This document shows, piece after piece, positions 5,990 through 38,122 of a stretch of 64,000 nucleotides of DNA. The notes under the pieces were generated by a model. It was not told the origin of the DNA and did no database searches. It saw nothing but the letters and a program-made list of their open reading frames with translations. Origin of the DNA: a phage. The stretch is taken from sequence record PX880102.1; one strand, 5' to 3'. The first letter of the stretch is position 1, and each line of letters begins with the position of its first letter. The translations under genes were made by a program, and so were the position numbers.

Positions 5990-6012
5990 TATATCAAACT
6001 CCGTATAAAGCT

Positions 6013-6030
6013 AAAGGGCCGAAGCCCTTT
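6013..6030 (-). terminator. UUCG-tetraloop hairpin at the a-gt stop codon
   Basis: AAAGGGC-CGAA-GCCCTTT palindrome overlapping TAA of a-gt. Confidence 0.5.
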
Positions 6031-7231
6031 ATTTTGTAATAATGTCAAACTGTTCTTTAAAGCAGAAGCTTGAATCTTGATGCTGATACAAAAATTCATA
6101 TGCTTTTTCTCGCTCACGGTCATAAAGAGCTCGGTCAGATGACAGTTCTTTAATACGTTCAAATGTTGATTCCATGTCATTTTCATCAAACCAAATGATA
6201 CCGCTATCATGCGAGGTCAAAGGAGTATTATCAACACGGAATTTTAAATTTTCGCCAGTAGATTTCCAAAATACCGGAATTGTTCCACATGCACCAAGCT
6301 CGAGATGAGTATATTCTAAAGAGCGCTGTAGATATTTTTTATCCAACTTACTCAGCTGATAACCAAAACCGGATTTACTCATACGTTCAAGCATTTCGCT
6401 ATTTACATAACGGTCAAGAATTTGCGTTGGCAAATTAGGAGCAATTTTAATTTGGTCTACTTGATGAAGACGATAATACTCGTATGGAATTCCTTTTTCA
6501 TTAATAGGAATGAACGCTGGAGAACGTTCCAGACCTTCCATAATAGTACTTAGCCCAACAGGTTTAAGATGTTTTTCGTGAAAATCAAACATCTGATAAA
6601 AACCTTTCCATGTAGTCGTACGACCAATCCAACGGTTGACATTCATGTTAATTTCAGAAACATCTTTCCAGTAGGTTGATCGAACCTTCGCAATATCCAT
6701 AGGAGGCTGAAAGTTGTATACAGTCGGTGCTTCTTCAATATCATCAAACAGAGAAACTGTTTCTGGATACCATTCTTTCATCAGAACTTTATTAAAATCG
6801 CCATTATCAGAATGACTAAAAATAACATCAGCTCGACGAACAGTTTCTTCTAATCCCAAATTTCGGCGCAAAGAAAGAGAAGAATGGTCATGTTGATAAA
6901 CTACAACACGAACCGAAGGTTTAATGTTATCAATAATTTTTTTATAGTTATTAATAGTGTCTTCTTCAACTGAAGTAGCAGGAACTGAATTGATAATTAG
7001 AATATCACAATCATTTACCAGCTTAAGTGTTTTATCGTATTCTTTTGCCAATAAAACCGGAATTGAAAATGATTTATAATCATGCGCACAGTTACGAGTA
7101 AATGATTTATCTTTAGCATAAACCAAAGTTACTTCATGACCATTTTTAATAAACCAATCACGTTGCTCAAGAGAAAATTTAGTTACACCACAACCTTCAA
7201 GACCTCGAGCCATAAAAATACATACTTTCAT
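6029..7231 (-). CDS. a-gt: DNA alpha-glucosyltransferase
   Basis: 400 aa; N-terminus CIFMARGLEGCGVTKFSLEQRDWF as recalled for T4 a-gt. Confidence 0.9.
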   Translation of the reverse strand: MKVCIFMARGLEGCGVTKFSLEQRDWFIKNGHEVTLVYAKDKSFTRNCAHDYKSFSIPVLLAKEYDKTLKLVNDCDILIINSVPATSVEEDTINNYKKIIDNIKPSVRVVVYQHDHSSLSLRRNLGLEETVRRADVIFSHSDNGDFNKVLMKEWYPETVSLFDDIEEAPTVYNFQPPMDIAKVRSTYWKDVSEINMNVNRWIGRTTTWKGFYQMFDFHEKHLKPVGLSTIMEGLERSPAFIPINEKGIPYEYYRLHQVDQIKIAPNLPTQILDRYVNSEMLERMSKSGFGYQLSKLDKKYLQRSLEYTHLELGACGTIPVFWKSTGENLKFRVDNTPLTSHDSGIIWFDENDMESTFERIKELSSDRALYDREREKAYEFLYQHQDSSFCFKEQFDIITK

Positions 7232-7255
7232 TTAATATCCTCATTGTTTTGGTTT

Positions 7256-7279
7256 ATTTTACCAAAAATTTATAAAGCA
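7256..7279 (-). promoter_or_regulatory. MotA-dependent middle promoter upstream of a-gt
   Basis: TGCTTTA box, 11-nt spacer, TAAAAT on minus strand. Confidence 0.45.
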
Positions 7280-7283
7280 ATAT

Positions 7284-7299
7284 AGGAGCCGAAGCTCCT
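7284..7299 (-). terminator. UUCG-tetraloop hairpin
   Basis: GGAGC-CGAA-GCTCC overlapping stop of the 57-aa ORF. Confidence 0.45.
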
Positions 7300-7471
7300 A
7301 TCCGCATAATACGCCATACAGAGGCTCATTAGAACTTTTAAATTTTATGCGCTTATATTTTATAGTTCCTTCTGCTTTAGCTTTATCATGAGACTCTTTA
7401 AAGAGTCTCATCATTTCCTCTTTAGAGGAACGAATTTTATTATAATCTATTTCAGAAGTCTGGGTGTTCAT
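7298..7471 (-). CDS. small basic protein (57 aa), below ORF-track threshold
   Basis: Own translation MNTQTSEIDYNKIRSSKEEMMRLFKESHDKAKAEG...; weak RBS; ends in hairpin. Confidence 0.4.
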   Translation of the reverse strand: MNTQTSEIDYNKIRSSKEEMMRLFKESHDKAKAEGTIKYKRIKFKSSNEPLYGVLCG

Positions 7472-7474
7472 CTT

Positions 7475-7678
7475 TCATAACTGCCACCATTTTTTAACTT
7501 GATAAGAATCAACCCACACTTTCATATTAGGGTCTGCTCTTACAATAGGAGGATTAACTTCTTTAATTGAACTATCATGGTATTCTTTTTCAGAAATTTT
7601 CACACAAAGATGACCATTCAAAGATTCAGTAAATCCTGCATTAATTTTAAGACGCTTGAATTTTACGTGTGTAAGCAT
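7475..7678 (-). CDS. hypothetical protein
   Basis: Track start is TTG; ATG at 7678 gives 67 aa. Confidence 0.5.
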   Translation of the reverse strand: MLTHVKFKRLKINAGFTESLNGHLCVKISEKEYHDSSIKEVNPPIVRADPNMKVWVDSYQVKKWWQL

Positions 7679-7964
7679 CAATCATATCCTCAATCTGCGA
7701 TCTAGTAGTCTTCCAAAGAATACTGATGAGTTCATCGTTATATGGCTGTTTTAGAATATCCCGACTTTTCTTGATAGCATATTCGTATTGAGCAAAATTA
7801 TTATTTTCAGCTGCAATCTGAGCGTGCTTATAAAGACGATTCAGTTCGCGTTTGTTTTTAGACAATAACTTATTTGCTTTTCTTTCTGCTTCAAGACGGT
7901 TCTTTTCTTCAATAGAAGAAATAAGCTTTTCCACTTCATCATTAATTTCGGGTTTATCAGTCAT
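7647..7964 (-). CDS. hypothetical coiled-coil protein
   Basis: 105 aa, ATG start. Confidence 0.6.
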   Translation of the reverse strand: MTDKPEINDEVEKLISSIEEKNRLEAERKANKLLSKNKRELNRLYKHAQIAAENNNFAQYEYAIKKSRDILKQPYNDELISILWKTTRSQIEDMIDAYTRKIQAS

Positions 7965-32640: not shown

Positions 32641-33114
32641 TTATTTGAATGATTTGACGTACTGAATAGAGCCTTTACTATTCACGAAAGCGATTTTACC
32701 ATTTTTGTTATACATTGTAGCAGTACGCTGATAACCATAAGTTTGTTTACCAGATTGATAACCAACTAATGCAAAATTATCTTCGCCCATTTTATTCTGT
32801 TTGGCGCGGATACGTTCATGACCGTGCGCCATAAGAACCTTAGCATCGCCAGTTGAAATTGATCTACGAGTTTTTTCATCTTCAACTGTATTAACAAAGT
32901 CGTCAAATGAATCAAATTTAGCATGAGATTTATTATACAGTTTTCCATCTACTGCATAATTATATCCCTGTACATCCATCTCAACTTCTGTACCATCATC
33001 CAATACAGCAGTAATTTTTTGACCTTTTTTAAATTTCAAAAGATCAGTAAAAGATTCAGCAATAATTTGAGAATTAATAGCTGCTTCAGTGATAAATTCT
33101 TGATATGTTTTCAT
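32641..33114 (-). CDS. internal-protein-like virion protein with capsid targeting sequence (IP-A)
   Basis: 157 aa; N-terminus MKTYQEFITEA matches T4 IP capsid-targeting sequence MKTYQEFIAEA; ATG start. Confidence 0.7.
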   Translation of the reverse strand: MKTYQEFITEAAINSQIIAESFTDLLKFKKGQKITAVLDDGTEVEMDVQGYNYAVDGKLYNKSHAKFDSFDDFVNTVEDEKTRRSISTGDAKVLMAHGHERIRAKQNKMGEDNFALVGYQSGKQTYGYQRTATMYNKNGKIAFVNSKGSIQYVKSFK

Positions 33115-33123
33115 ATATTTCCT

Positions 33124-33540
33124 TTAAATGTAAATATTTTTGCCGTAGTATTTATACCAGTGTGGCTTCATTAAAATTTTTTCATTGAGTCGTTGTTGAC
33201 TCAATTTAATAGCTGATTTGCATGGGTTATAATCATTTTTCCATTCTGCTGAAATATCGCTGATGTCAGGAACTTCAGTATCTTTTATACTGAACCCACG
33301 TTTTAAGCATTCCGTTATAATGTCTGATTGACGCTTTCGCAAAAATTCTAACTTATCGTAAAAGAACGTAACATGACCAGAACCTAAAATAAACTCGGAA
33401 GATATTTTAAAATCTTTAACCCGTTTACCATTTGCCACATGTTTACGAACTATACCAAAAACACGTGGCAATTCACGGTATTCTGCGATTAAATGTTGAT
33501 CAGCAAGTTCAGATACTAAAGTCAAATTAATACGAGTCAT
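33124..33540 (-). CDS. denV: endonuclease V (pyrimidine-dimer DNA glycosylase)
   Basis: 138 aa; [17 protein letters not shown]...WYKYYGK matches recalled T4 DenV. Confidence 0.92.
33149..33156 (-). promoter_or_regulatory. late promoter box upstream of IP-A
   Basis: Exact TATAAATA on minus strand 35 nt upstream of IP-A ATG, inside denV coding sequence. Confidence 0.5.
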
Positions 33541-33565
33541 TTTATCCCTCCAAGTAATTGTGAAT

Positions 33566-33595
33566 ATACTATCACAATTCTAGGAGAAAGTAAAC
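33566..33595 (-). promoter_or_regulatory. early promoter of denV
   Basis: Minus strand GTTTAC-N17-TGATAGTAT. Confidence 0.55.
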
Positions 33596-33599
33596 AACT

Positions 33600-34130
<531 letters not shown>

Positions 34131-34571
34131 TTAAAAGAGGCTGTTCATTATTCGGTAAAGTGAAGGACCCATCACATATTGCCACTGAGTACGAGGAATA
34201 AGGGCAAAAGCATCCATCTCTGGAATCATAACACCATCTTTATTTTCAAAATAAGACTCGCAATGGCAATTTCTAAACATCTCATGCTCTACTGGAATCG
34301 TATAATAAAATAACTGTAAGTCTTTATTACTAGAATATTTAAATACACCTAGGTCTTCTAGAAGGTCTGGATTATAATTGTTAAAACCAGTCTCTTCTGA
34401 GCATTCTCTTTTTGCAGCTTCCAGTGCATTCAAATCAGAACTTTCTACACGCCCCTTTGGAATATCCCAGCGATGTGCCATCATTCCAGGTTTACGAGAA
34501 CCAGTAACTCGTCCCATAAATAAATCTTTATCTTCTGTCATAAAGATAATACCAGCTGATAATGTTTTCAT
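34131..34571 (-). CDS. nudE: Nudix hydrolase NudE
   Basis: ATG at 34571 with AGGAAA RBS and ATGA coupling (146 aa); Nudix box GRVESSDLNALEAAKRECSEETGF. Confidence 0.85.
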   Translation of the reverse strand: MKTLSAGIIFMTEDKDLFMGRVTGSRKPGMMAHRWDIPKGRVESSDLNALEAAKRECSEETGFNNYNPDLLEDLGVFKYSSNKDLQLFYYTIPVEHEMFRNCHCESYFENKDGVMIPEMDAFALIPRTQWQYVMGPSLYRIMNSLF

Positions 34572-35056
34572 TTTAATTTCCTGCATTCAGTGATAAAATT
34601 ATTTAAATTTTGAGTATATTTCTTTTCATCAAAAATCTTTTGTTGTCTGCGCATCCGCCATGGCATTTCAATGAACATGTACCATATTCCTGATAATATT
34701 GATGCTGTAAAAATATTAACAAGTATGGTTAAAAGAATCCAATCTCCTATTCTGTCCATTGGATTTTTTATAAAAAAGTAAAATACGAATGATGACACAG
34801 GAAGACTAATGATATACCACAGAATCATAATCTTATCTGTGAACCATTCAGCATTCGTTAACTTAGCACGACCATTATGAATACACACGAATTTATCATC
34901 TGTTACCATAGATGGCTTAACTGCTTGATATCCCATTCTAAACTCCCTAATTAATCGTTTCTTTGTATCTTCAGAACAGCCACTCCAGTCAACTCCATCA
35001 ACTGAAATGCCATCGTCCCCATCATCTAAATCATACCAGCGAGTTTTTAAAATCAT
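34568..35056 (-). CDS. small membrane protein, paralogue family member 1 (e.2-like)
   Basis: 162 aa, ATG start; TM segments plus basic tail ending CRKLK. Confidence 0.6.
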   Translation of the reverse strand: MILKTRWYDLDDGDDGISVDGVDWSGCSEDTKKRLIREFRMGYQAVKPSMVTDDKFVCIHNGRAKLTNAEWFTDKIMILWYIISLPVSSFVFYFFIKNPMDRIGDWILLTILVNIFTASILSGIWYMFIEMPWRMRRQQKIFDEKKYTQNLNNFITECRKLK

Positions 35057-35427
35057 TTAATTTTCCTACAATCACTCACAAACTCTTTCATTGATTCATT
35101 TTCAATATAAGACATGTAGTTATTATATTCTTTTAATTGTATTTTGTAATCCTTTTTTCTTTGCCAATTTATTTTAAAATTATCATAATGAAAATATAAA
35201 ATAATACCAAAGAATGAAAATAATGAAATTGCTATAGTATAATGAAGTTCACTCCAAACTTCTATTATATCTACTATACCGCTGACGTTACTGCGGATGT
35301 TTAAAATAAAACAGTCAATTAGCAATCCAATAAGACTACCCGCAAGAGCTGCAAATACTGACACAGCAAGAATTAATAGTGCCTCGGGAAACGAATATTT
35401 GACTTTATTTAGTTTTGGCTTTTGCAT
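35053..35427 (-). CDS. small membrane protein, paralogue family member 2 (e.3-like)
   Basis: 124 aa, ATG start; two TM segments; tail ending CRKIK. Confidence 0.6.
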   Translation of the reverse strand: MQKPKLNKVKYSFPEALLILAVSVFAALAGSLIGLLIDCFILNIRSNVSGIVDIIEVWSELHYTIAISLFSFFGIILYFHYDNFKINWQRKKDYKIQLKEYNNYMSYIENESMKEFVSDCRKIK

Positions 35428-35801
35428 CGTGATTCCTTAACAAATTTCATAATTTCATCAAATTCATACGCAGCAAGTTTAAGCTGATGTTCTTTTTTAA
35501 TCTTTTTGCACCGGGCTTTCCAATCACGTACACGTTTACGATAGTGTCTTCCTTGATACCAGTATCCTACCCAATTCACAGGTACTAATAAAAGCGGAAC
35601 TACCAATGGAAGAATTAGTGTTGCTCCAAATATTACACCAGATTCAATATCAGTCATAACGTCTATAACCATTCCAGCAATTAGCAAAATCACAAATGAT
35701 ACAGCTACCACAGGACCTATTAACACATCAGTAGAAATTAGCTGACGCTTTGGTTCATACTTCACTGGTTTACTTGGAAGGTATAGTGATGGCTTTGACA
35801 T
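35409..35801 (-). CDS. small membrane protein, paralogue family member 3 (e.4-like)
   Basis: Track start is TTG; ATG at 35801 gives 130 aa; tail ending RCKSQN. Confidence 0.55.
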   Translation of the reverse strand: MSKPSLYLPSKPVKYEPKRQLISTDVLIGPVVAVSFVILLIAGMVIDVMTDIESGVIFGATLILPLVVPLLLVPVNWVGYWYQGRHYRKRVRDWKARCKKIKKEHQLKLAAYEFDEIMKFVKESRCKSQN

Positions 35802-36384
35802 ATTCTCTACATTCCTTAACAAATTTTTCTAATAATAAATCGCTTTCAAAATTAGGATTTTCCACGAATTTATCAAAAAGATCATCAACAATAGTTAAGA
35901 TATTCTTTTTACTAAGAATACGTTTATTTTCATATTTTGTTTCAGAATCAACTATAAGAGTAAAGAAATATTTCTTTCCCTGAAATTTTACCGTAGTATC
36001 AATATAGAACAAATTTGACTTTTGTAAATTACGTTTAAACCATGCATCACTTAAACTATAAACGCCAAGATAATCATAATCGTCATTTAAATAACAAACT
36101 GTCCATTCAGGAGAAATGAAATCAGTAAATTCAACATCAAAATCACACGTCAATGAATGAATTGATTCAATACTGTTAATGAGTATTCCAGGACGTATTA
36201 AAGACTTTTTACCTCTAGAAAATCTTCCGGAAAGGCTTTCATCAGTTTCATATGAAGACCCCCAATAGTAATTACGTCCTTCTGCCATGCGTTTAAGAGC
36301 ATTTAGTAATTGGTCTGGAACATCAACCTGTCTTTGGAACTCTTCAAACATTGAATTGAAATCACTTTGCATTTTCATTTTCAT
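35770..36384 (-). CDS. hypothetical protein (e.5-like)
   Basis: 204 aa, ATG start. Confidence 0.6.
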   Translation of the reverse strand: MKMKMQSDFNSMFEEFQRQVDVPDQLLNALKRMAEGRNYYWGSSYETDESLSGRFSRGKKSLIRPGILINSIESIHSLTCDFDVEFTDFISPEWTVCYLNDDYDYLGVYSLSDAWFKRNLQKSNLFYIDTTVKFQGKKYFFTLIVDSETKYENKRILSKKNILTIVDDLFDKFVENPNFESDLLLEKFVKECREYVKAITIPSK

Positions 36385-36403
36385 TCCTATTTACTCCAAG
36401 TAT

Positions 36404-36421
36404 AAGGGGCCGAAGCCCCTT
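36404..36421 (-). terminator. UUCG-tetraloop hairpin
   Basis: AAGGGGC-CGAA-GCCCCTT palindrome between e.6-like and e.5-like genes. Confidence 0.5.
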
Positions 36422-36425
36422 ATCA

Positions 36426-37019
36426 TTATTTCAGAGAATTAATGTATTCCTGAACATCGGCAGAGGTAGTTTCAACCCCAGAAATATTACCGTTAAAGGT
36501 TTCAACTCGAGCAAGGGTATCTTCAATATCAACCTTAGTCAGTGCTGCAATTTCAACTACATCATCGGCAGTACTAATTCCAAGGGCATTTGCTGCACGA
36601 GTTTCACGGATATATTCCAATTTAACCGCAAGTTCTTGACGAGCATCATCTAACTCAACTACTTTCTTGGCGATTTCAATTCGCATTTCAGCATAACCGT
36701 CAGCTTTAGTAGTCAACTGCTCAGCTGTTCGACGATATAGTAAACCGAGTTTAGCATGCATTGTTACATCTTGACCCTCGGAAAGAAGTTTACGAATTTC
36801 ACGCTCTTTTGATTCGGCTTGTCGATTCTTTTCGACAATAAGTTCACGAATACGTTTTTCTTCATTAATAGATTTAACAGAAGCAGTTTTTAGATCTTTA
36901 ATTTTATCAAGCAGTTTTGCTGCTGCAGCAGTATACTGTTCTTCAACAGATAGATTTTTAGCCATAGCAGAACCAAGTTTAGTGCGAATAAATTCAACAA
37001 TTTTCTTCAGTGTGTTCAT
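36426..37019 (-). CDS. hypothetical coiled-coil protein (e.6-like)
   Basis: 197 aa, ATG start; long predicted helices. Confidence 0.6.
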
Positions 37020-37061
37020 AGTATTTCCTTAGGTTGATTAAAAATAAAATCTGTGGAAGAA

Positions 37062-37592
37062 TTATATCATACTATTTAAGAGATGTAAACTATTTTTAAT
37101 TTTACAAATTCGTTCAGCTTCTTCAACGGCGGCGGCGATGATGCTTTTAGCTATAGGAGTACTAATACTAGTAGCTTTTACACTTAACACGATTTCTTTA
37201 TCTTTACTAGGCCAACCCCATGATTTTTCACCATGAGTGCCTTTAATTACAGCAGACACCTCAAGTGAGCATCCACTGTCACATGTTTTTACATTAACAA
37301 CCCAAGGGTCACTTTTCTCAACCGATTTCTCAGCCGGTTTATCCCAGTAAATATTAAGAATACGTGGGACATCAAATTTAGCAGGGCAAATCTTAACTGT
37401 AAGACCTTCGCTTTCTAGCCAATTAATAAGAGGGCGTTCATACATGCGGCGATGTGGGCTTTGGACTCGACAAGCCTTGTGCCCATTGCTTGCGGCTTCA
37501 CTAAGCTGTTCTAATACCTGTTTTTGCATTATTGATAAGATATCATCAAAAGATTTTTCGGAAGTTTCATTCAGTTCGGTATAAAGAGACAT
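37062..37592 (-). CDS. hypothetical protein (e.7-like)
   Basis: Track start is TTG; ATG at 37592 with GAGGAAAA RBS gives 176 aa. Confidence 0.6.
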   Translation of the reverse strand: MSLYTELNETSEKSFDDILSIMQKQVLEQLSEAASNGHKACRVQSPHRRMYERPLINWLESEGLTVKICPAKFDVPRILNIYWDKPAEKSVEKSDPWVVNVKTCDSGCSLEVSAVIKGTHGEKSWGWPSKDKEIVLSVKATSISTPIAKSIIAAAVEEAERICKIKNSLHLLNSMI

Positions 37593-37648
37593 AACGGTTT
37601 TCCTCAAATTGTAGGCTCATAATATCTCAATCATGAGCCTATGTAAAC

Positions 37649-37912
37649 TTATTTCATATTATTGAAATATTCTTCTGCGATTTCGTCGTTATCGTGGTAA
37701 ACTTTAGAAGACAGTTTAACATAACCTTCTGCTGTGAACATGTTAATCACAACCTTTACAGTATACCACTGTCCGTCTTCATTACCCATTACTGCGTAAG
37801 TTTCAAACATCGGATGGTCAGGACCGATAACTTTAATATCATTCACTGTACGACCGAAATCTTCTGAAACGCATTTCATAAAGAAGTTGAACAGTTCGCC
37901 GTAATTATCCAT
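37649..37912 (-). CDS. hypothetical protein (e.8-like)
   Basis: Track ORF begins inside the promoter; ATG at 37912 with GGAGAA RBS gives 87 aa. Confidence 0.55.
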   Translation of the reverse strand: MDNYGELFNFFMKCVSEDFGRTVNDIKVIGPDHPMFETYAVMGNEDGQWYTVKVVINMFTAEGYVKLSSKVYHDNDEIAEEYFNNMK

Positions 37913-37956
37913 TTCATTCTCCAAGTTGTTTTTCTGTATCAGTAGTTGATAGTTGT

Positions 37957-37986
37957 ATAGTACCATGGACGAACAGGGATGTAAAC
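37957..37986 (-). promoter_or_regulatory. early promoter (repeated promoter-leader module, copy 3)
   Basis: GTTTAC-N17-TGGTACTAT with same ACAACTATCAACT leader as 21243 and 22683 copies. Confidence 0.6.
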
Positions 37987-38122
37987 CGTTTTGTGAAAAA
38001 TTTTTTAAAAAGTTTTAGGGAATTCTAGGGCAGGGATGGGCAATTAAAGGATAGGATAATATATTATAAAGGGTAGAAACTAAATGATGCCTAGAGAGGC
38101 CTGGAAAGGCCTAGATACCAAA

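Follow-up and report, generated by a model that had tools for sequence, protein, structure and literature searches.

Tandem paralogy of e.3 and e.4 and a recurrent C-terminal motif in the e.5–e.2 block of a T4-like phage genome

The 64,000-nucleotide stretch of the phage sequence record PX880102.1 analysed here (hereafter the window) is Tequatrovirus (T4-like) genome sequence, and our subject within it is a block of small overlapping genes, e.5, e.4, e.3 and e.2, the last three of which encode predicted membrane proteins that share a C-terminal motif with the soluble product of the first. Over bases 34000-36500 the window shares 97% identity with Yersinia phage PYps32T and Escherichia phage BW-1, among others, and matching phage records number 514. 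A sequence-only reading had drawn three open reading frames (ORFs) with short overlaps, and all three are present at exactly the coordinates of Table 1, every one on the minus strand; synteny and annotation identify them as T4 genes e.2, e.3 and e.4, and the strand opposite them carries short ORFs only. Transcription runs along the minus strand in the order e.6 > e.5 > e.4 > e.3 > e.2 > nudE > e (lysozyme), the same gene order as in T4 relatives, so that by transcription direction e.2-e.4 stand upstream of nudE and not downstream of it, as had been proposed. Neighbouring genes overlap by 32 nucleotides (nt) at e.5/e.4, 19 nt at e.4/e.3, 4 nt (ATGA) at e.3/e.2, and 4 or 19 nt at e.2/nudE, according to the choice of nudE start. 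The window proteins are full-length members of the T4 families (E 1e-61 to 1e-76) and are 80-100% identical to many Tequatrovirus homologues: e.4 matches phrog_2604 over residues 1-130 (E 1.6e-69) and PF26873 is found on all its close homologues, e.3 matches phrog_2330 over residues 1-122 (E 3.3e-61) and has homologues annotated as e.3 in PP01 and RB69, and e.2 matches phrog_2203 over residues 1-160 (E 2.2e-76), with PF26896 on all homologues. We take the UniProt entries for the T4 ORFs to include Y06M and Y06O, with Y06N presumably being e.3. Pfam and PHROGs keep the proteins as separate families, 3 or 4 in number and without an assigned function, and the T4 e.2-e.4 database entries carry no record of e.3/e.4 homology or of a motif common to e.5.

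By profile comparison, e.3 and e.4 are genuine tandem paralogues whose homology goes beyond composition. Divergent loci from RB69, VR5, RZ and Klebsiella phage Mexia were compared together with 34 IMG/VR loci anchored on the conserved gene e.6; the locus ORFs were clustered into families, and the family profiles were compared pairwise by hhalign against two nulls, one of reversed target alignments (mean 14.5, max 30, n=55) and one of unrelated families of the same loci (mean 11.1, max 23.1, n=133). BLASTP aligns e.3 with e.4 over their full length at 22% identity (E 0.008), the locus families score 43.7 in hhalign (probability 92.5%, E 5e-7, 44 columns), and independent cross-genus alignments score 49.7 (94.9%, E 4.4e-8) over 63 columns that comprise the second transmembrane helix (TM2) and the whole tail. 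Because these hhalign scores exceed the maxima of both the reversed-target and the unrelated-family null, the likeness of e.3 and e.4 reflects homology and not composition.

The sequence-only reading had proposed a tandem paralogue family of all three proteins, with pairwise alignment as its check, and this part of the proposal narrows to e.3 and e.4. Outside the terminal motif e.2 shows no similarity to e.3, with only the last 13-15 columns aligning in hhalign (36-67.5%; local score 29.4; E 5e-5 with the cross-genus alignments) and the last 15 residues in BLASTP (E 0.006), and between e.2 and e.4 there is no detectable similarity in hhalign (0.1-0.6%; BLASTP E 0.16). A deep iterative hmmsearch intended to merge the families was discarded, as reversed decoys with two transmembrane helices (2-TM) entered at iteration 4 with E ~1e-11. 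The three proteins are nevertheless alike in predicted topology (N-in, 2 TM, basic C-in tail) and in tandem position; for e.2 the comparison gives the same predicted topology and terminal module, and kinship of its hairpin and N-terminal domain to e.3/e.4 cannot be demonstrated. A mosaic origin of e.2 is accordingly a serious possibility, to which we give somewhat less than even weight: its hairpin and N-terminal domain would be unrelated to those of e.3/e.4, and the terminal module alone would have been gained by recombination. The shortness of the e.2–e.3 alignment and the near-zero e.2–e.4 probability fit such an origin, as do the separate families in PHROGs and Pfam and the fact that e.2 relatives adjoin nudE, apart from e.4/e.3, in VR5-, L036- and L038-type genomes. 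Against it stand the shared operon and the shared architecture of a predicted N-in/C-in 2-TM hairpin, basic tail and motif; moreover, the sequence signal of TM hairpins fades fast, so missing similarity is weak evidence.

Each of the three proteins contains two strongly hydrophobic helices (Kyte-Doolittle KD19 maxima 2.0-2.7; also helices in AlphaFold2 (AF2) models), an N-terminus and C-tail rich in K/R (9-16 K+R in the tails), and an acidic or neutral inter-helix loop of 7-17 residues. Because the termini are rich in K/R and the loop is short and acidic or neutral, the positive-inside rule predicts that e.2, e.3 and e.4 are small helical-hairpin inner-membrane proteins of N-in/C-in topology, with both ends cytoplasmic. 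Topology prediction thus bears out the earlier description of two or more hydrophobic helices followed by a basic cytoplasmic tail, with exactly two helices in each protein; in e.2 the hairpin is preceded by an additional predicted soluble N-terminal domain of ~75 residues. The AF2 model of the e.4 family (predicted local distance difference test score, pLDDT, 65), a plain helical hairpin, has helices at residues 24-49 and 54-108, with TM2 continuous with the tail, and a separate terminal helix at 111-124 that contains the motif; the model of e.2 is poor (pLDDT 52). Conservation is concentrated in the predicted cytoplasmic parts. In the e.4 family the invariant columns comprise the N-peptide MSKPSLYLPSKP... 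and the whole tail, with TM1 and the loop variable, and across genera no variation is seen at the motif's F and C in e.3 or at F-I-x-x-C-R in e.2.

The similar Cys-containing tail motif that had been claimed for the three proteins is non-random and strict in e.2 and e.3, but e.4 has Ser in place of the Cys, and the same motif is found on a soluble protein, e.5, encoded directly upstream of e.4 and ending ...LEKFVKECREYVK.... Within ~25 C-terminal residues, e.5, e.3 and e.2 fit the strict form of h-x-x-[FW]-[IVL]-x-x-[C/IVMS]-[RK], and e.4 has a variant form. The strict pattern [FW][IV]xxC[RK] has 3 matches in the six-frame ORFs of the window, namely the tails of e.5, e.3 and e.2, against a shuffle expectation of 0.16 for the last 22 amino acids (aa), and 3 matches in the complete 168,903-bp T4 genome, only in the same three genes. 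Among the 34 loci, h-x-x-F-[IV]-x-x-C-[RK] is carried by ~19 small-protein families of the e.6-proximal variable region, of which ~15 lie beyond e.2-e.5, are 2-TM or soluble, and occur in other Tevenvirinae genera. In RB69, VR5, RZ, Mexia and all other sampled lineages, e.6 is followed downstream by a run of consecutive genes whose products end in motif variants, namely soluble proteins like e.5, between one and four 2-TM proteins, and other small proteins that are soluble.

Across the 19 family representatives, position 0 of the motif is F in 18 and otherwise W, position +1 is I/V/L in all 19, position +4 is C in 14 and otherwise I/M/V, position +5 is R/K in all 19, and position -3 is hydrophobic, with L/I in 11; the two x positions are most often occupied by K-E (AAG GAR). 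The i, i+3, i+4, i+7 spacing of the hydrophobic residues corresponds to one face of an alpha-helix, and in most motif families the hydrophobic moment is higher at 100 degrees than at 160 degrees, which fits a terminal motif that forms an amphipathic helix. Links through the motif alone (e.2 with family e5_F22, 34.6; e5_F28 with e.3, 28.7; F58s with e.3, 27.6) all exceed the unrelated-family null in hhalign, and the module ties e.2 and e.3 equally well to the non-membrane protein e.5; since the same module links e.2/e.3 to a soluble protein, the motif alone defines no membrane-protein family.

Table 1. Positions of the genes, predicted helices, motifs and neighbouring elements discussed in the text (TM helices are predicted)
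Feature	Position in window	Strand	Description
e.5	35770..36384	-	204 aa, soluble, without TM helix; PF26876 Phage_T4_Y06P; first gene of the translationally overlapping block
e.5 motif	35806..35832	-	residues 185-193, LEKFVKECR; 17 residues from the C-terminus
e.4	35409..35801	-	130 aa; conserved N-peptide MSKPSLYLPSKP, TM1, TM2, 50-aa basic helical tail with end IMKFVKESRCKSQN; phrog_2604, PF26873 Phage_T4_Y06O
e.4 TM1	35661-35729	-	residues 25-47
e.4 TM2	35562-35639	-	residues 55-80
e.4 motif	35427..35453	-	residues 117-125, IMKFVKESR; Ser in place of Cys, Cys at +2
e.3	35053..35427	-	124 aa; basic N-peptide, TM1, TM2, 45-aa tail with end MKEFVSDCRKIK; phrog_2330
e.3 TM1	35299-35382	-	residues 16-43
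e.3 TM2	35191-35247	-	residues 61-79
e.3 motif	35065..35091	-	residues 113-121, MKEFVSDCR
e.2	34568..35056	-	162 aa; ~75-aa soluble N-terminal domain, TM1, TM2, basic tail with end LNNFITECRKLK; phrog_2203, PF26896 Phage_T4_Y06M
e.2 TM1	34769-34831	-	residues 76-96
e.2 TM2	34670-34744	-	residues 105-129
e.2 motif	34580..34606	-	residues 151-159, LNNFITECR
16-nt direct repeat, copy 1	35432..35447	.	mRNA sense AAATTTGTTAAGGAAT, the K-F-V-K-E codons of e.4
16-nt direct repeat, copy 2	35811..35826	.	K-F-V-K-E codons of e.5
e.6	36426-37019	-	
UUCG-tetraloop hairpin	36402-36423		AAGGGGCTTCGGCCCCTT; in the 41-nt e.6/e.5 gap
Internal-protein-like ORF	32641-33114		starts with MKTYQEFITE
W-[VIF]-x-S-S-x-x-Cys arrays	outside window		L002 3231-4026; L005 3191-4212; L012-L027 about 6000-7700

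The motif overlaps the ribosome-binding site of the next gene. The tails of e.3 and e.2 read TGY AGG AAA WTW AAA TGA, combining AGGAAA with the ATGA overlap, and the motif codons of e.5 and e.4 place AAG GAA 5-10 nt before the next ATG. Our initial idea was that the C-terminal similarity might be a by-product of translational coupling, in which the Shine-Dalgarno (SD) sequence, spacer and start of the downstream gene are read in the upstream frame, and it can draw on the SD sequences contained in the window motif codons and on K-E being the commonest x-x pair. It was rejected on codon variability, variable spacing and the motif-free state of other junctions, and we now regard it as hardly credible. 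The motif codons vary synonymously (F as TTT/TTC, I as ATT/ATC/ATA, C as TGT/TGC, and Arg in all six codons, AGA/AGG/CGT/CGC/CGA/CGG), the Cys codon and the next ATG are 5-83 nt apart, depending on the family, the x-x pair is often not SD-like, and the motif is kept in families without overlap to the next gene (gap +29 in F60s, +6 in F32s). Many other coupled junctions lack it, with no strict match at any of those in the 64-kb window or the T4 genome, and Rfam has no match in window 33000-38000. Because synonymous codons are used freely, spacing is variable and the motif is retained without overlap, the sequence comparison indicates that constraint on the motif acts on amino acids and not on nucleotides; a similarity can coincide with overlapping start signals without being an artefact of coupling.

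Constraint at the level of DNA has a second possible form, in which the motif is kept as a recombination linker for cassette swaps and has no protein function. This would be an in-frame analogue of the promoter-early stem-loops (PeSL), which are intergenic, non-coding and conserved as DNA, and for which modular shuffling in hyperplastic regions is documented in T4-type phages (PMC2839356, PMC4122927). PeSL cassettes are the nearest published repeated junction element in such regions, and the likeness lies in a short element that recurs where genes meet, within a hyperplastic region that gains and loses genes: a perfect 16-nt direct repeat with a spacing of 379 nt brackets e.4 and could plausibly serve as the site at which that unit is gained or lost, a stem-loop lies between e.6 and e.5, the number of 2-TM genes with the motif ranges from 1 to 4 among lineages, and natural deletions and fusions occur. 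The element here, by contrast, is part of the coding sequence of overlapping genes, and what is conserved of it across families and genera is the amino acids only. The genes of the e.5-e.2 block overlap and leave no intergenic space for promoter/stem-loop cassettes, the only hairpin being that of the e.6/e.5 gap, and the one characterised natural chimera was joined at a 7-nt microhomology in TM1 and not at the motif. We therefore consider a purely recombinational role of the motif very unlikely.

Selection on the membrane proteins is, on the substitution rates, purifying but relaxed, and not positive. Ratios of nonsynonymous to synonymous substitution rates (dN/dS) for e.2 and e.4 against close relatives are 0.13-0.29, compared with 0-0.07 for e.5 and e.6; the one exception, e.2 against the 98.8%-identical locus L009, gives 0.71 from very few substitutions. 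As all values are below 1, there is no sign of positive diversifying selection. In nature the genes are often lost, fused or shifted out of frame, and the variants of the block include several disrupted or rearranged forms. The reference T4 e.2 is disrupted by a frameshift and annotated with 102 aa (NC_000866 67491-67960), its FITECRKLK tail lying in other frames, and a recent T4 record and Yersinia phage fPS-2 give the same two-piece match, whereas the window e.2 is intact with 162 aa. Phage vB_EcoM-UFV05 (locus L045 3001-3321) carries an in-frame e.4(1-31)::e.2(88-162) chimera in place of e.4, e.3 and e.2; homologous recombination between paralogues was rejected as its origin, since the junction is a 7-nt microhomology, TCCTGTG, and is silent on e.4/e.2 homology. 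A natural e.4 variant (P0195) has 69 aa and has lost both TM helices in frame. In Shigella phage vB_SsoM_113 (locus L001 4398-5372) an A-run just before the e.5 motif is one base shorter (GAAAAATTTG > GAAAATTTG), which fuses e.5 and e.4 into a single 324-aa coding sequence without the e.5 motif; the change could be genuine or could come from missequencing of the homopolymer. Knockdown of e.2-e.6 by CRISPRi-ART in laboratory E. coli was scored 'Not Fit', with no fitness effect (PMC11879866, supplementary file 15), and because the genes are dispensable in laboratory E. coli a conditional role is most likely.

We are highly confident of these structural and evolutionary statements on the e.2-e.5 block and its motif. 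In the mechanism that we propose for them, proteins that are either hairpins anchored in the inner membrane (e.4, e.3, e.2) or soluble (e.5 and others) would each present a conserved cytoplasmic amphipathic helix, and this terminal helix would serve all of them as a docking module for a single partner, at the cytoplasmic face of the inner membrane or close to it. Candidate partners are a host protein, the conserved phage proteins e.5 or e.6, or the motif proteins themselves; the variable part, whether TM hairpin, e.2 N-domain or e.5 globular body, would set location or specificity, and the role would be conditional, in host takeover or counter-defence. A docking module is the best fit because F, I/V and R/K are near-invariant across otherwise unrelated bodies, and we put it forward tentatively, as one possible reading of the alignments. 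Several points weigh against it. The docking partner is hypothetical, and it is just as possible that the motif acts within its own protein, in self-association, or as a helix on the membrane surface. The Cys is replaced by I/V/M/S in 5 of the 19 families, so Cys-specific chemistry is not universal, and the e.2–e.3 link is short, its score of 29.4 lying at the edge of the reversed-target null. AF2 confidence is low to moderate, the family alignments are shallow (effective number of sequences, Neff, ~2), the topology of e.2-e.4 is predicted, and their early expression is putative. Finally, the loci were all gathered via e.6, so that finding e.6 together with motif genes follows from the sampling itself.

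A membrane-surface role would assign the terminal amphipathic helix to membrane targeting, tethering e.5-like proteins and lying on the bilayer in the 2-TM proteins, in the manner of the C-terminal membrane-targeting helices of MinD and FtsA. Its amphipathicity, C-terminal position and flanking basic residues, and its presence on both soluble and membrane proteins, suit such a role. Helices of this kind tolerate wide variation, whereas F, I/V and R/K are almost invariant here, and acidic residues, unfavourable for anionic lipid, are frequent at -4, -2 and +3; we judge this reading distinctly unlikely.

The function suggested by the sequence-only reading, that e.2-e.4 act at the membrane as diversifying effectors which exclude superinfecting phages or block membrane-bound host defence, is also unlikely in our estimation. 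It accords with small inner-membrane proteins encoded in an accessory region where counter-defence genes abound (tk.4/AdfM, 57B/Acb1), with evolution faster than that of their neighbours and variable copy number, and the lack of a laboratory phenotype is compatible with a conditional role. The proteins have no similarity, however, to T4 Imm, Sp, rI, rIII, Ac, 55.8, nrdC.7 or other T4 membrane proteins (hhalign scores <= 21; for Imm/Sp, probability <= 6%), the PADLOC hidden Markov models of anti-phage defence match 0 families for all five proteins, and dN/dS values that all stay below 1 give no indication of positive diversifying selection. The predicted periplasmic loop is short and the least conserved part, whereas the predicted cytoplasmic N-peptide and tail are invariant, and the presence of the tail motif on soluble proteins is unexplained by envelope exclusion. 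Conservation of the cytoplasmic parts alongside a variable TM1 and periplasmic loop argues against a periplasm-facing mechanism, and not against a cytoplasmic or membrane-proximal target. Imm is a small protein with two hydrophobic helices, and Imm, Sp, rI and rIII resemble e.2-e.4 in being small, non-essential, envelope-associated T4 accessory proteins; they differ in having no sequence or profile similarity and no tail motif, and in e.3/e.4 conservation falls on tails predicted to be cytoplasmic.

Extending the docking proposal, the FIxxCR helix might be a portable address tag by which ~19 unrelated putative early accessory families converge on one hub, with the invariant e.5/e.6 or an inner-membrane-located host factor as candidates; this is a speculative step, and we think it rather unlikely. 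If it were true, the e.6-proximal variable region would be an exchangeable effector set around a single interaction and the motif a marker for such effectors. More generally, a motif that is a docking tag would offer a simple marker for one accessory-effector class across Tevenvirinae; if it is not, the region is an ordinary plastic array of small membrane proteins. T4 e.2-e.6 have been 'conserved hypothetical' since genome sequencing and their homologues are widely mislabelled in GenBank, and the e.3/e.4 paralogy together with a cluster-specific tail helix constrained at the protein level provides an experimental handle on this block of phage dark matter. The genes themselves were already known as hypothetical ORFs, and the modest novelty lies in the e.3/e.4 relationship and the cluster-specific FIxxCR tail of ~19 families, both absent from Pfam, PHROGs and searchable papers.

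Database searches with the window proteins gave no informative match in Pfam-A (local copy), NCBIfam or PDB sequences, and no function for e.2-e.5 was found in the papers that could be searched. An exhaustive profile search with e.4 over 1.84 billion representatives returned 6 hits, all T4-like e.4 proteins, fragments or chimeras, and did not reach other families or bacteria; because it matched only those, the e.4 family appears confined to T4-like phages. GenBank labels on e.3/e.4 homologues include 'sulfurtransferase', 'DNA primase', 'terminase small subunit', 'site-specific RNA endonuclease', 'host specificity protein' and 'putative phosphoserine phosphatase'. None of these is supported by Pfam/NCBIfam scans of the window proteins, and for the first no rhodanese, TusA or other sulfurtransferase domain was found in Pfam or NCBIfam at E <= 1.

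Two known peptide modules invite comparison with the motif. The T4 capsid-targeting sequence of internal proteins, MKTYQEFIAE, is N-terminal and borne by late-packaged proteins, and it and the MinD/FtsA helices are, like the motif, helix-forming modules of ~10 residues on unrelated bodies. The capsid-targeting sequence has a superficial E-F-I-x-E resemblance to the tail motif, but it is N-terminal and lacks the C-R pair. About half of the motif families have an I-x-E triplet; kinship to this sequence or to a gp21 prohead protease cleavage site through I-x-E is unsupported, with E at +3 in 9 of 19 families and the motif on membrane or early proteins. The window itself contains an internal-protein-like ORF that starts with a capsid-targeting sequence (Table 1), and the likeness of its E-F-I-x-E core to FIxE was judged coincidental.

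The most conserved gene of the neighbourhood is e.6, which is 54-100% identical in 34/34 loci and always 197-201 aa long, and has no Pfam, NCBIfam or PDB match. In the 34 loci, which were gathered via e.6, it always directly precedes a motif-bearing e.5-like protein. The gap between e.6 and e.5 in the window holds a stable UUCG-tetraloop hairpin without a T-run, which may act in RNA processing or stability at the start of the overlapping e.5-nudE block. In non-Tequatrovirus phages (RB69-, RZ-, VR5-like and others), tandem small soluble proteins ending in W-[VIF]-x-S-S-x-x-Cys-stop are encoded directly downstream of e.3/e.4-like genes. These arrays are absent from T4 and the window and represent a second terminal-motif family of the same variable region, with up to 5 members per genome and 94 unique ORFs, among whose ends are GAWVSSSAMC, GGWVSSSSEC, TSWVSSSYEC, KIWYPSSC and GFWFNSSMSC.

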